A DNA stretch of 64,000 bases. Origin: a virus. Made by a program: the position numbers and the translations under genes. Every line of letters begins with the position of its first letter. Positions within the stretch are counted from its first letter, which is position 1. This document shows, one piece after another, positions 37,199-39,888 of the stretch. The stretch is from positions 1 through 64,000 of the IMG/VR virus record IMGVR_UViG_3300006097_000019; one strand, written 5' to 3'. The notes beneath the pieces were generated by a model. It made no database searches. It saw only the letters and a list, made by a program, of their open reading frames with translations, and was not told the DNA's origin.

Positions 37199-37414
37199 TT
37201 GATATACCGAAAGGAGAAAATTATGAACAAGTATATGTCTCAATCAGAAAATGATTTTCAAAATAACTATGCGGAAGGTCAGAATTATAAGTTCAGAAAT
37301 TTGTGCGATACATGTACACAACTAATACCCGAGTGCAATGGCACTAAGATAAAATTTGGGGATGATATTGGCAATGATAATGTAATTGAATGTGATGGCT
37401 ATATAAAATATTAA
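37199..37414 (+). CDS. hypothetical Cys-containing protein
   Basis: 71-aa ORF; an internal ATG at codon 8 is an alternative start. Confidence 0.45.
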   Translation: MIYRKEKIMNKYMSQSENDFQNNYAEGQNYKFRNLCDTCTQLIPECNGTKIKFGDDIGNDNVIECDGYIKY

Positions 37415-38020: not shown

Positions 38021-38221
38021 CCATAGCAGAGGGGTTTATACTCTGCTAAAACATCAGGGCTATTAGGTAGTCCTTAAATCCTAGATGAGTAAACATCTAG
38101 TACCCACAGATTTATTAGGGTAGAGAAGTGCTATTCTTTGAAATAGTAACACTCGATAAGGTAAATAAAAAGTCTGTTTTATTTACCACCTCCCGAAAGG
38201 GGCAATCTATAATTTTTACTG
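38021..38221 (+). ncRNA. tracrRNA-like scaffold RNA for the Cas12f-like effector
   Basis: Non-coding and GC-richer than the flanks. Perfect hairpins: agcagag/ctctgct (38025-38047), ctagatg/catctag (38081-38100), ggtaaataaaa/ttttatttacc (38160-38187) and ccc-GAAA-ggg (38192-38201). The 3' end gcaatctat (38202-38210) is complementary to the repeat segment atagattgt. Confidence 0.5.
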
Positions 38222-38327
38222 TTTAAATAAAGATAATTACTAGTAATAGATTGTAAGTCCACCTTGTTTTCGCTCTTTTTTCTTAAATCCTTTTAAATAA
38301 AAATCATCACTAGTAATGGATTGCAAG
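38222..38327 (+). CRISPR. mini-CRISPR array: two 36-bp repeats and one 34-bp spacer
   Basis: R1 is tttaaataaagataattactagtaatagattgtaag (38222-38257). R2 is tttaaataaaaatcatcactagtaatggattgcaag (38292-38327). They share 31 of 36 positions with a 70-bp period. The repeat 3' end ..ATTGCAAG resembles the type V-F repeat end ..ATGCAAC. Confidence 0.6.
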
Positions 38328-38381
38328 ATGTTGACCTAGCTAAAGCAGAATCACCACACCATAGGAGGGTTATTTAATATA

Positions 38382-39674
38382 ATGAGTAATATAATTAAAA
38401 CAATGTCATACGAAATAATAAAACCAGTTGATTGTGATTGGAATACGTTTGGAAAATTATTAAGAGATTTACAATATGAAACTAGAAAAATTTTAAATAA
38501 ATCAATTAGTTTAGCATGGGAATATGATGATTTTGCATCTGATTATAAAAAAATTTTTGGACAATATCTAAAAACAGAAAACATTTTAAATTACAAGACT
38601 ATATTAGGTTATGTTTATGACAGATTAAAAAGTGAATATTATAAATTGAATACTGGAAACTTTACAGAAACCATAAAAAAAGCAACAGATAAATGGAAAA
38701 ACAATAAAATTGAAGTATGGAAAGGTAATGAAAATATTCCTAGCTTTAAAAACAAAAATTCACCTATTGATGTGGTGAAAAAATCAATCCAAGTAATAAA
38801 AGAAGATAATAATTACTATCTAAATTTAAGTTTAATTTCAACTAAATATAAAAAAGAATTAGATAGAAAATCAGGGCAGTTTTTAGTTCTAATCAAGCCA
38901 GGAGATAAAATACAAAGAGTAATTTTGGAAAGAATAATATCTGGAGAATATGATATTGGTACATCTCAAATAGTACAAAAGAAGAATAAATGGTTTGTAA
39001 ATTTAGTATATAAGTTTCAAAAAGAAAAAACCTCTACTTTAAATCAAGACAACATTATGGGTATTGATTTAGGAATTAAAAAAGCATTATATATGTCATT
39101 TAATAATTCAAGAGATAGATATTATATAGATGGAGGTGAGATAGATGATTTTAGGAAGAAAACAGAAAAAAGAAGAAATGAATATTTAAGACAGGGAAAA
39201 TATTGTGCTGATGGAAGAATTGGTCATGGTAGAGAAACTAGAATTAAACCTATACAAAAACTTCAAAATAAGGTTGAGAATTTTAAAAATACTACTAATC
39301 ATAAGTATAGTAGGTATGTAATAGAAATAGCATTAAAGTATAATTGTAAGACAATACAAATGGAAAAATTAGAAGGAATAAATAAAAATAGTGTATTTTT
39401 AAAAAATTGGACTTATTATGATTTACAACAAAAAATTGAATATAAAGCAAGAGAATGTGGTATTGAAATAAAATATATTAATCCAAAATACACTTCTCAG
39501 AGATGTTCAAAATGTGGATATATACATAGTGATAATAGAGAAAATCAAGAGACATTCCATTGTAAGAGTTGTGGATTTAAAACTAATGCTGATTATAATG
39601 CTTCTCAAAATATTGCAACTAAAGATATTGAAGAAATTATTGAAAATACATTAGAAGAATTAAAAGCATCATAA
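38382..39674 (+). CDS. cas12f: Cas12f-like (type V-F) miniature RNA-guided nuclease
   Basis: RuvC-I IMGIDLG (D229), RuvC-II TIQMEKLE (E328), Zn ribbon CSKCG..CKSCG, RuvC-III NADYNASQNIA (D404). From memory it is collinear end to end with AsCas12f1 (422 aa). Confidence 0.8.
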   Translation: MSNIIKTMSYEIIKPVDCDWNTFGKLLRDLQYETRKILNKSISLAWEYDDFASDYKKIFGQYLKTENILNYKTILGYVYDRLKSEYYKLNTGNFTETIKKATDKWKNNKIEVWKGNENIPSFKNKNSPIDVVKKSIQVIKEDNNYYLNLSLISTKYKKELDRKSGQFLVLIKPGDKIQRVILERIISGEYDIGTSQIVQKKNKWFVNLVYKFQKEKTSTLNQDNIMGIDLGIKKALYMSFNNSRDRYYIDGGEIDDFRKKTEKRRNEYLRQGKYCADGRIGHGRETRIKPIQKLQNKVENFKNTTNHKYSRYVIEIALKYNCKTIQMEKLEGINKNSVFLKNWTYYDLQQKIEYKARECGIEIKYINPKYTSQRCSKCGYIHSDNRENQETFHCKSCGFKTNADYNASQNIATKDIEEIIENTLEELKAS

Positions 39675-39888
39675 TTTTAGAAAAGGAGTTTTGAAAAAAT
39701 GTTTAGAGATAAAATTAAAAGTCAAACAGTTTAAATATACCTAAAGTGTTAAAAAACACATTACTGGAAAATGAAGAAGAAAAACACCAAAAAATTTTAA
39801 ATGATTTTCAAAAAGAATTAGATAAACACAAAGAACTAATAAATACTAAAATAGAAAAACAATAAAAATCAAATTTTATCTTAGTGCG

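Follow-up and report, generated by a model that had tools for sequence, protein, structure and literature searches.

Two imperfect repeats lie just upstream of a cas12f-like gene in the phage DNA analysed here, and the question that they raise is whether they form the array of a working CRISPR-Cas system, the vestige of one, a regulatory element or merely a pair of protein-binding sites. The window, i.e., the whole 64-kb stretch that was analysed, belongs to a phage with a GC content of 26.6% that encodes a DNA polymerase, DnaB, a tape measure protein, tail proteins, a serine integrase and an amidase. Within 1.6 kb of it, four parts follow each other on the + strand, i.e., a tracrRNA gene, an array consisting of R1, one spacer and R2, a short leader, and cas12f (Table 1). 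Together, positions 38057-39674 very likely represent a complete compact type V-F1 CRISPR-Cas locus of a large AT-rich phage. Type V-F1, which comprises the AsCas12f1-like systems, was formerly called V-U3. Judged by its sequence, the system is genuine and probably functional, complete but ordinary.

Table 1. Features of the putative V-F1 locus, with positions counted from the first nucleotide of the window.
Feature	Position	Strand	Remark
tracrRNA gene, predicted extent	38057-38210	+	divergent homologue of the AsCas12f1 tracrRNA
tracrRNA stem 1	38057-38073	+	
Lineage-specific insertion (~42 nt), two hairpins	38081-38100, 38101-38122	+	common to sister locus L252
Conserved core GAGAAGTGC...TAACACTCGATAAGGTA	38123-38163	+	
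tracrRNA stem 3	38160-38187	+	
Reduced stem 4, UCCC-GAAA-GGGG	38190-38201	+	4 bp + GAAA
Anti-repeat gcaatctat	38202-38210	+	pairs with repeat positions 27-35
CRISPR repeat R1	38222-38257	+	predicted 5' handle source of the only clear crRNA
Spacer 1, tccaccttgttttcgctcttttttcttaaatcct	38258-38291 (33-34 nt)	+	predicted guide: repeat-proximal ~20 nt
R2, terminal (cas12f-proximal) repeat	38292-38327	+	5 differences from R1 (6 if 37 nt)
Leader, R2 to Shine-Dalgarno	38328-38362	+	formally a 'pseudo-guide' should R2 undergo the same processing as R1
Shine-Dalgarno AGGAGG	38363-38368	+	13 nt 5' of ATG 38382
cas12f1, 430 aa, AsCas12f1-like	38382-39674	+	ORF 54 nt 3' of R2

The effector gene and the repeat pair

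The first-pass annotation, which was made from the letters alone, had called the gene downstream of the repeats cas12f-like. This assignment was confirmed by a full-length match over residues 3-423 to the structures 8J3R, 8J12, 7WJU and 8DZJ in the PDB (E ~1e-134), along with matches to the Pfam family Cas12f1-like_TNB (E 3e-23) and to the NCBIfam model guided_TnpB (191 bits). The RuvC residues D229/E328/D404 and the zinc-ribbon cysteines C375/C378/C394/C397 are intact, and all of them are invariant among 24 relatives. In a comparison of the four PAM-contacting residues with those of AsCas12f1, one was found to differ (H72 to L) and another to be conservatively exchanged (S92 to T), while the T-specifying tyrosine (Y76 of AsCas12f1) is kept. 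An exact-protein look-up showed the identical Cas12f protein to be on record for three JGI contigs. In the ten neighbouring ORFs, no Cas domain and no cas1, cas2 or cas4 was detected, the only matches being a serine recombinase, an amidase and a weak zinc-ribbon hit.

The coordinates that the first-pass annotation gave for R1 and R2 proved exact, with 36 nt in each repeat, 31 of 36 positions identical (86%) and a spacing of 70. When the whole 64-kb window was scanned for two 36-nt segments that agree at 31 or more positions and are spaced by 50-90 nt, R1/R2 was the sole pair, and the same scan returned no pair at all on 100 first-order Markov simulations. The 3' half of the repeat, ACTAGTAATRGATTGYAAG, has exact copies in R1 and R2 only. 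Repeats of the cas12f1 family are 29-37 nt long, begin with GTT and finish in ...TG(C/T)(A/G)AG, and the resemblance of the repeat end ATTG(T/C)AAG to such family ends, which had been noted from the letters, is borne out by L003 (AAGTTGCAAG), L088 and L231 (GTTGTAAG) and L256 (AATGTAAG). Because the repeats of the relatives begin with GTT, the true repeat is probably 37 nt long (38221-38257 and 38291-38327, with R1 starting at G38221), which would leave a spacer of 33 nt. The location first assigned to the spacer stands, whereas its length of 34 nt probably has to be shortened by this one nucleotide; at 33-34 nt, it exceeds the ~30 nt that are usual in the family. With two family-type repeats, the minimum for an array to be called, placed 54 nt 5' of cas12f, the array adjoins its effector gene. 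A search of viral contigs with the repeat pattern gave five single matches, all of them in unrelated coding sequence and all judged to be chance.

The tracrRNA gene and its pairing with the repeats

No Rfam family was found for the region upstream of R1, a V-F tracrRNA model being apparently absent from that collection, and a separate covariance model was therefore built. Trained without the window, this model gave a single match in the 64 kb, at 38109-38211 on the + strand (22.3 bits, E 4e-4), which terminates at the proposed anti-repeat. The sister loci, which were also excluded from training, scored 55-70 bits vs. the 22 bits of the window, and the scan revealed no copy of the scaffold 3' of cas12f. 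Homology to the tracrRNA is also seen in the sequence alignments A2 and A3 with related loci. The motif CTCG[AG]T[AC]AGG adjoins cas12f in 24 loci, on the + strand and always co-oriented, including L085, which is taken to be the native AsCas12f1 locus because its protein is identical to chain A of PDB 8J12. The RNAalifold consensus contains compensatory changes at 17 of its 21 pairs, the fold of the tracrRNA region has a z-score of −4.6, and compensatory changes also separate the insertion hairpins of the window from those of L252. Stem 4, which is reduced here, contacts the protein in AsCas12f1 (10.1101/2023.07.03.547593). A pairing of CCUCC in the tracrRNA with the cas12f Shine-Dalgarno sequence appeared in one minimum-free-energy fold and not in the centroid, and it was set aside as unsupported.

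The anti-repeat proposed in the first-pass annotation indeed forms nine contiguous pairs with R1 as well as with R2, in which the last pair is U·G for R1 (atagattgt) and the third pair is G·U for R2 (atggattgc). The calculated duplex energies are −10.5 kcal/mol for R1 and −11.9 kcal/mol for R2 vs. −5.7 ± 2.0 kcal/mol for shuffled repeats. It had also been pointed out that two of the differences between the repeats preserve this pairing, which is true; as an argument from compensatory change, however, the observation is statistically weak, because both are transitions opposite U or G that wobble would tolerate anyway. About half of the paired positions would accept such a transition, and two or three events are not significant alone.

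The anti-repeat helix of the window lies at +50 from the conserved tracrRNA motif and leaves AAG as the unpaired 3' tail of the repeat, as in L098, L176, L231 and L256. The same position is occupied by the anti-repeat in 25 other loci, where it covaries with the 3' segment of each locus's own repeat; the position is constant among loci and the sequence is fully changed between them. In a curated, position-restricted table with a cross-locus control, in which the rows L017, L088 and L099 pick up the array itself, the mean helix length was 10.9 bp for a repeat and the anti-repeat of its own locus vs. 7.2 ± 2.0 bp for the cross-locus controls. The helix of the window has 9 bp vs. a repeat:anti-repeat length of 13-29 nt in the sister loci, and its pairing with R1 in cis is present in both the minimum-free-energy and the centroid folds. 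From the letters, a second A-U-rich segment (38212-38218, auuuuua) could pair weakly with repeat positions 7-13, and this pairing is absent from the cofold prediction. The reading of R1 and R2 as a two-repeat CRISPR mini-array of a Cas12f-like (V-F) system, with which the analysis began, is supported by the protein, the tracrRNA, the anti-repeat and the form of the repeats.

Spacer, terminal repeat and rival explanations

Protospacers beside a T-rich PAM, for which the first-pass annotation had suggested a search, did not turn up for either candidate guide in viral contigs, phages or plasmids. Within the 64-kb window, spacer 1 has no second copy at up to 3 mismatches, and no self-targeting or CreR-like target was found for either guide, the best seed being 9 nt without PAM context. 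The first 22 of the 34 nt of spacer 1 match exactly in six related viral contigs (L161-L166), where they fall in the 3'-terminal part of a gene for a small DNA methyltransferase and have the flank ACCG rather than TTR, and the distal 24 nt gave no match. As a protospacer, this site was judged probably chance or non-canonical. It is doubted because of its ACCG flank, given that the protospacers of the sister lineage adjoin GTTA and that Y76 is kept; because the last 12 nt are unmatched and would create an in-frame stop codon; because the matching phages have a GC content of 41-45% vs. 26.6% for the phage of the window, a gap of 17 points; and because, by estimate, chance alone would give ~0.1 20-mer matches in so large a collection.

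Spacer turnover in related phages, which had been proposed as a check on the array, was seen in a sister lineage with a Cas12f 61% identical to that of the window, where the arrays differ among contigs encoding an identical protein. No closer relative was available for this comparison in a single-protein search of viral contigs, in megablast and blastn searches of phage records or in a metagenome scan (best 59%). One sister spacer matches the head-tail gene of another phage at 35/35 positions, and a second (16 nt) matches the same phage contig. Both of these protospacers adjoin GTTA, which fits the PAM NTTR of AsCas12f1 (10.1101/2023.07.03.547593). The sister locus L252 contains three tracrRNA-plus-array modules, one of its spacers equals the start of a gene of its own phage bar two PAM-proximal bases, and in sister loci such modules are also found directly 5' of a methyltransferase gene and of another gene.

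For the sequence that follows R2, two options had been put forward at the outset, i.e., that R2 is a terminal degenerate repeat or that a second guide is coupled to the 5' UTR of the effector, and comparison within the family favours the former. In nearly all relatives that are at least 40% identical, cas12f has an array of period 64-69 directly up- or downstream, and viral loci of the upstream type show the order tracrRNA, array, degenerate last repeat, Shine-Dalgarno sequence, cas12f. Relatives with upstream arrays as a rule have a degenerate last repeat that lies 24-62 nt 5' of the cas12f start, and terminal repeats with 3-8 changes beside the cas12f Shine-Dalgarno sequence occur in L001, L003, L006, L007, L008, L020 and L252-254. 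R2 is best read as a terminal repeat rather than as the handle of a second guide, because many viral and bacterial relatives share this order. For the candidate guide after R2, searches of viral contigs, phages and plasmids were negative, a 20-nt plasmid match with E = 2 being dismissed. The leader has a GC content of 44% vs. 26.6% for the genome, which places it in the top 3% among 34-nt windows, it is unstructured by itself, and no sigma-70-like promoter was found in it. The Shine-Dalgarno sequence AGGAGG was correctly recognized before cas12f, but its position, first given as about 38364-38369, is one nucleotide further upstream, and the 20-nt segment after R2 stops 16 nt short of it.

Several features of this locus would also be expected of a decaying remnant, in which the array and perhaps the tracrRNA are vestigial and cas12f is kept by chance or for some other role. 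The repeats are identical at merely 31 of 36 positions, the tracrRNA scores low in the family model and has a reduced stem 4, the anti-repeat helix is short compared with those of the sister loci, and the spacer is of odd length, is without a canonical target and ends in 12 nt that resemble local AT-rich sequence, 10 nt being in common with the tracrRNA gene. However, the cas12f ORF is intact with all of its catalytic and zinc residues, both repeats pair fully with the anti-repeat at energies far beyond those of shuffled repeats, the most conserved core of the tracrRNA is intact, and 3-8 changes in the terminal repeat are normal in family arrays that are clearly active and turning over, so that decay appears unlikely. 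That the repeats are untranscribed operator sites, recognized by a DNA-binding protein through ACTAGT, is highly improbable. This 6-bp palindrome is indeed present in each repeat and the pair lies directly 5' of a gene, but the palindrome is absent from the repeats of related loci, whereas the pair fits the CRISPR arrays of dozens of homologous loci in the length of its repeats, their period and 3' end, its orientation and its position, and a tracrRNA homologue is complementary to both repeats at the place typical of the family.

A regulatory purpose, either as a mini-array that steers a promoter in the manner of CreR or tracr-L or through binding at R2 and the leader that sets the translation of cas12f, is distinctly unlikely. 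It would fit the location of R2 54 nt 5' of the start codon with no promoter-like site between, the cas12f Shine-Dalgarno sequence within 20 nt after the terminal repeat in L252-254, the conservation of the segment after the last repeat among L007, L008 and L020, and the near match of the L252 spacer to the start of a gene of its own phage; mini-arrays are known, moreover, in type I and V-A systems (PMC10120712). Against it, neither guide has a partial match in the 64 kb analysed of a genome of at least 107 kb, the 20 nt after R2 end before the Shine-Dalgarno sequence in the window, the leader is without structure of its own, and conservation of leader and Shine-Dalgarno sequence is expected regardless. 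A small chance is left to a feedback loop within one RNA that comprises the guide RNA genes and the nuclease mRNA, in which the tracrRNA would form a single guide with R1 in cis, independent of any partner in trans, and R2 in the cas12f leader would be bound or cut by tracrRNA-Cas12f, whereby the guide complex would set the amount of nuclease. A wider version is suggested by the modules of the sister loci that precede a methyltransferase gene and another gene, namely that tracrRNA-plus-array modules may serve phage genes as portable 5' cassettes for control or processing.

Proposed mechanism and comparison with known systems

For the complete V-F1 system that is preferred here, we infer the following course of transcription, processing and activity. 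The unit would be transcribed rightwards, and cas12f would probably share the transcript, since no sigma-70-like promoter lies between it and the array. The anti-repeat of the tracrRNA would pair with the 3' part of the repeat, and because it lies only 11 nt 5' of R1, this pairing could take place in cis and give a natural single-guide-like RNA. The RNAs bound to AsCas12f1 are a 169-nt tracrRNA and crRNAs of 40-50 nt that consist of partial repeat and spacer (PMC8548392). By homology to AsCas12f1, a Cas12f dimer would bind the scaffold and use the first ~20 nt of spacer 1 as the guide, and its RuvC site would cut target dsDNA that carries a 5' PAM, which is probably T-rich. R2 would close the array as a degenerate terminal repeat, with no second guide deliberately kept. 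Going by the spacers of the sister lineage, the likely role would be to interfere with another phage or mobile element that competes for the same host.

The system that has been studied in most closely comparable form is AsCas12f1 of Acidibacillus sulfuroxidans / Sulfoacidibacillus thermotolerans Y002 (L085). The effectors of the two loci, ~420-430 aa in length, can be aligned over their full extent, and their RuvC and zinc-ribbon residues are invariant. Both tracrRNAs are long and structured, contain the same core motifs and carry an anti-repeat that comes right after stem 4 and pairs just 5' of the 3' tail of the repeat, and both loci have repeats in the range of 29-37 nt and no nearby adaptation genes. 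They differ in order, the AsCas12f1 locus running from cas12f through the tracrRNA and a ~130-nt leader to a long downstream array, whereas in the window the tracrRNA and the two-repeat array abut and lie upstream. The window also differs in the ~42-nt insertion and reduced stem 4 of its tracrRNA, in the change of H72 to L, and in being located in a phage rather than in a chromosome. The same compact order as in the window is found in the phage Cas12f1 loci L252-L254, L256 and L003 (metagenomic), Bacillus phage Mgbh1 (L020) and Alicyclobacillus phage MMB025, in which the cas12f gene is annotated as 'transposase'. L252-254, L256 and L003 also share the AT-rich phage background, and L252 the tracrRNA insertion. 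However, the arrays of these phage relatives consist of 3-8 repeats and are mostly separated from the tracrRNA by a leader that contains a promoter, whereas the window has the smallest array possible and no leader at that place.

The locus also resembles the mini-CRISPR arrays borne by other viruses in that one or two spacers are carried in a viral genome. Such mini-arrays probably serve conflict with related viruses or mobile elements (Medvedeva et al. 2019; PMC11656645), and those described carry the repeats of the host and borrow its Cas proteins (PMC11656645). The window, in contrast, has its own effector and tracrRNA. With CreR and the mini-arrays of type I and V-A systems (PMC10120712) and with the tracr-L of Cas9, it shares a minimal array or fused guide beside a cas gene that could be controlled, and the short distance between the tracrRNA and the first repeat would allow a single-guide fold as in tracr-L. 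A difference is that no partially matching target near a promoter was found in the window. To our knowledge, regulation of the CreR or tracr-L type has not been reported for V-F systems. TnpB with its omega RNA (IS200/IS605) belongs to the same protein superfamily and likewise uses a long scaffold RNA that carries its guide at the 3' end. The window differs from it in having no IS ends and no TnpA, in a scaffold that lies upstream without overlap with the 3' end of the gene, and in having a repeat-spacer array together with a separate anti-repeat; its Cas12f scores 53 bits in the IS200_TnpB model vs. a cut-off of 425.

The locus adds a complete, very compact V-F1 unit (~1.6 kb) in a large AT-rich phage, in an upstream co-directional layout that recurs in phage relatives whose effectors are annotated merely as transposases, and so represents another virus with a guided nuclease of its own, presumably directed against rivals. 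For technology, it offers a small AsCas12f1 orthologue with one altered PAM-contacting residue and a naturally short tracrRNA-repeat junction. The understanding of V-F systems is left unchanged, and only a coupling of guide processing to nuclease expression through the terminal repeat, if true, could change it.

As a separate observation, the cassette lies between the two arms of a perfect 18-nt inverted repeat (37341-37358 and 39870-39887). An interpretation as transposon ends or as the borders of an invertible segment was considered and set aside. The sister loci are without such a repeat, and the window contains five perfect inverted repeats with arms of 16 nt or more that are no further than 5 kb apart vs. 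~2.4 sixteen-mer pairs in simulation.

The repeat pair and its tracrRNA

The first-pass annotation gave the sequences and coordinates of R1 and R2 exactly. Both are 36 nt, identical at 31 positions and spaced by 70 nt, and they form the sole such pair in a scan of the whole 64-kb window (36-nt segments, at least 31 matches, 50–90 nt spacing), while the same scan of 100 Markov-simulated sequences returned zero pairs. Exact copies of the repeat 3′ half occur in the window at these two sites only. Since repeats in relatives start with GTT, the window repeat is probably 37 nt long, starting at G38221 and T38291, with a spacer of 33 nt.

Folding of the 200 nt preceding R1 is much more stable than that of shuffled sequence (z = −4.6). 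In 24 loci, including the AsCas12f1 reference locus L085, the motif CTCG[AG]T[AC]AGG adjoins cas12f on the same strand; in L085 it falls within what we take to be the AsCas12f1 guide scaffold. The window and the family tracrRNA have in common stem 1, a single-stranded CCTTAAATC, GAGAAGTGC, a variable hairpin, TAACACTCGATAAGGTA, stem 3 and stem 4, which the anti-repeat follows directly. Compensatory changes are found in 17 of the 21 pairs of a consensus structure built from 15 aligned relatives, the window excluded, and the covariance model derived from this alignment has a single match in the 64-kb window (22.3 bits, E = 4e-4), which stops at the proposed anti-repeat. This score is low, as sister loci likewise outside the training set reach 55–70 bits, because the window tracrRNA carries a two-hairpin insertion of ~42 nt and its stem 4 is shortened to 4 bp capped by a GAAA loop. 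The closest relative, L252, has the insertion too, with compensatory changes in both hairpins. The window tracrRNA also holds CACCUCC, an anti-Shine-Dalgarno sequence, whose CCUCC pairs with GGAGG of the cas12f ribosome-binding site in one minimum-free-energy fold (38057–38400); this pairing is absent from the centroid fold.

Pairing of both repeats with the upstream anti-repeat, as the annotation had claimed, was upheld by a 9-bp helix with R1 and with R2, which leaves AAG as 3′ tail, a feature shared with four other loci, and by duplex energies of −10.5 and −11.9 kcal/mol, where shuffled repeats give −5.7 ± 2.0. In 26 tracrRNA/repeat combinations, the 25–95 nt after the motif were searched against the last 22 nt of the repeat for helices ending at most 7 nt from the repeat 3′ end, giving a mean helix of 10.9 bp within a locus versus 7.2 ± 2.0 bp for cross-locus controls. 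The position of this helix is constant and its sequence wholly different between loci (e.g., catcatacatag/ctatgtgtgatg, aactaacgc/gcgttagtt and, in AsCas12f1, acgcttcaca/tgtggagtgt). Two differences between R1 and R2, A/G and T/C, had been read as preserving the pairing, which they do, and a third, G/A at repeat position 11, is compatible with a possible weak A-U helix. However, all three differences are transitions opposite U or G, a change that wobble always tolerates, and about 9 of the 16 paired positions are of such a kind, so this argument is suggestive and not significant.

Coordinates of features in the window and in related contigs
Feature	Sequence	Coordinates	Strand
Left arm of inverted repeat	window	37341–37358	
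ORF containing left arm	window	37199–37414	
tracrRNA gene	window	38057–38210	+
tracrRNA segment shared with spacer 1	window	38073–38082	
Covariance-model match	window	38109–38211	+
CACCUCC	window	38187–38193	
Anti-repeat gcaatctat	window	38202–38210	
Possible weak A-U helix	window	38212–18	
R1	window	38222–38257	
Spacer 1	window	38258–38291	
Last 10 nt of spacer 1	window	38282–38291	
R2	window	38292–38327	
GGAGG of ribosome-binding site	window	38364–38368	
cas12f ORF	window	38382–39674	
Right arm of inverted repeat	window	39870–39887	
tracrRNA-plus-array modules	L252	2500–2975, 4299–4800, 5618–6080	
Second-array spacer	L252	4662–4697	
Self-match site	L252	6235–6267	
Match of 16-nt L252 spacer	L257	1159–1174	
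Second tracrRNA copy	L256	6303–6470	

The nuclease gene and the layout of the locus

The cas12f-like gene noted beside the array was confirmed as such: its 430-aa product matches Pfam Cas12f1-like_TNB and NCBIfam guided_TnpB, and residues 3–423 align with the structures 8J3R, 8J12, 8J1J, 8DZJ and 7WJU (E ~1e-134). PDB 8J12 has been cited as Cas12f (10.1101/2025.01.20.633832), and because the L085 protein (Sulfoacidibacillus thermotolerans Y002) is identical to 8J12 chain A, L085 was identified as the native AsCas12f1 locus and used as reference. Alignment of the window protein with 23 relatives (49–61% identity) shows no variation at RuvC residues D229, E328 and D404 or at the four zinc-ribbon cysteines. 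At the PAM-contacting residues of AsCas12f1, H72, Y76, S92 and K96 (10.1101/2023.07.03.547593), the window protein has L, Y, T and K, whereas the protein of the sister lineage (L252–L254, metagenomic phage-borne loci) keeps all four.

Arrays with a period of 64–69 are found in nearly all relatives with at least 40% identity. In most bacterial genomes, among them that with AsCas12f1, the array lies ~150–300 nt downstream of cas12f; in many viral contigs, and in some genomes, it directly precedes cas12f, the upstream order being tracrRNA, array, a last repeat with 3–8 changes, 24–62 nt, SD and cas12f. The window follows this order with the minimum repeat number, so R2 is best read as a terminal repeat, an option of the first-pass annotation (a terminal degenerate repeat) that the family layout favours. 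Since about half of the non-redundant tracrRNA/array pairs have an array that starts at most ~100 nt from the core motif, the abutment of tracrRNA and array in the window is a family trait too, and the compact layout is, judged by locus comparison, family-typical. With a gap of 11 nt between them, anti-repeat and R1 could pair in cis, and such pairing is predicted by the minimum-free-energy fold as well as by the centroid fold. The stretch from R2 to the cas12f start codon holds no promoter-like site and the leader there is unstructured, suggesting that array and cas12f are likely co-transcribed.

Guides, targets and competing readings

Matches of the guides to phages or plasmids beside a T-rich PAM, which the annotation had proposed to look for, were not found, the best hit being 22 nt beside ACCG. 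Neither spacer 1 nor the segment after R2 has a second copy or a seed match longer than 9 nt in the window, or a match in phage and plasmid collections, and the post-R2 segment has none in viral contigs. The first 20 nt of spacer 1 match six related viral contigs at the 3′ end of a small methyltransferase gene, the match extending to 22 nt; the distal part of the spacer has no match. This match is probably fortuitous, because its 5′ flank is ACCG, the other 12 nt are unmatched, the contigs are 41–45% GC, and ~0.1 random 20-mer matches are expected in a collection of this size by our own estimate. The last 10 nt of spacer 1 (cttaaatcct) recur in the tracrRNA gene, where they cover the conserved single-stranded CCTTAAATC and one further base, and its first 22 nt are 41% GC and its last 12 nt AT-rich, phage-like; the spacer may be chimeric or rearranged, or the likeness may be due to chance.

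Spacer turnover among related phages, also raised in the annotation, is seen in the sister lineage, where L252/L253 and L254 encode Cas12f proteins identical to each other and 61% identical to that of the window, and share the terminal repeat and leader, while one array has two spacers and the other five. Their spacers are 16–38 nt long, a spread unusual for ruler-based acquisition. One L254 spacer matches three viral contigs of the same sample series (L257–L259) at 35/35 positions within a head-tail gene, and a 16-nt L252 spacer matches L257, so two spacers from different sister contigs match the same foreign phage. Both protospacers follow GTTA, which fits the AsCas12f1 NTTR PAM. By analogy, and given the PAM-contacting residues, a T-rich PAM can reasonably be expected for the window, as can a role of its array in inter-phage conflict.

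The locus combines an effector, an array and a tracrRNA with anti-repeat, with no adaptation genes among the ten ORFs neighbouring cas12f, as in type V-F1. Surveys have recorded virus-encoded V-F1/V-U3-like effectors (PMC12607003), and virus-borne mini-arrays are well known (PMC11656645); a host-dependent viral mini-array was ruled out because the locus brings its own effector, and an IS200/IS605 TnpB element was rejected. From the homologies, complementarity and architecture observed at the locus, we infer its expression, processing, activity, PAM and target as follows: the unit would be transcribed rightward, the tracrRNA would pair, in cis or in trans, with R1, the scaffold would be bound by a Cas12f dimer, and matching DNA beside a T-rich PAM would be cleaved under the guidance of the first ~20 nt of spacer 1, with R2 closing the array. 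AsCas12f1 requires a guide of at least 16 nt and binds crRNAs of 40–50 nt (PMC8548392).

A self-contained single-guide system with feedback through the terminal repeat has a small chance of being correct. That the locus is a decaying remnant, as its divergent tracrRNA, repeat identity of only 86% and orphan spacer might suggest, is unlikely, since the nuclease gene is intact and both repeats still pair. A regulatory role, via a cr-like guide or via R2 in the cas12f leader, would suit the recurrent position of the last repeat beside the SD and has precedents in type I and V-A loci, where regulatory mini-arrays are known (PMC10120712); however, no target was found for the candidate guides, and the 20 nt that follow R2 in the window end 16 nt before the SD. 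This role is also unlikely. The suggestion that the repeats are a protein operator at ACTAGT is contradicted by all comparative data and is scarcely credible.

Phage setting and related loci

The window is phage DNA (26.6% GC), with PHROG matches to DNA polymerase, DnaB helicase, tape measure and tail proteins, and also encodes a large serine recombinase and an amidase endolysin; the closest isolate by DNA polymerase is Brevibacillus phage Sundance (53%). A perfect 18-nt inverted repeat, GCACTAAGATAAAATTTG, flanks a 2.5-kb segment holding two small ORFs, the tracrRNA, the array and cas12f; its left arm falls within an ORF, and a large serine recombinase gene lies 1 kb to the right of the segment. 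Perfect inverted repeats of at least 16 nt are not rare in this AT-rich window (five, versus ~2.4 sixteen-mer pairs simulated), and the sister loci have no equivalent.

L252 carries three tracrRNA-plus-array modules (covariance-model scores of 66, 70 and 55 bits), one of which precedes cas12f, while the third is a two-repeat mini-array like that of the window; in one module the last repeat touches the ribosome-binding site of a D12 DNA methyltransferase gene. A spacer of its second array matches the phage's own DNA at 33/36 nt, where a gene has its ribosome-binding site and first nine codons, with the flank TTTG and the two PAM-proximal bases mismatched; this site could be protected by the seed mismatches, or the spacer could be a regulatory guide. 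In L256, another phage-borne Cas12f1 locus, a second tracrRNA copy (105 bits) downstream of cas12f is followed by a 3-nt loop, the last 16 nt of a repeat and cgtgaggggcaaacagacat, and is in effect a natural gene for a single-guide RNA whose one guide is fixed; this guide has no exact match in viral contigs.

In three phage loci with spacers that all differ (L007, L008 and L020), a conserved c[ct][ac]aagc[ga]aacatt..ggagg follows the degenerate terminal repeat ~30 nt before the cas12f start and echoes gcgaac of the repeat end. Cultured phages with Cas12f1 homologues, annotated as transposases, are Bacillus phage Mgbh1 (L020; KU665491) and Alicyclobacillus phage MMB025 (PV686781), with 43% and 40% identity to the window protein, respectively; Mgbh1 has a two-repeat array and a degenerate third repeat immediately upstream of the gene.
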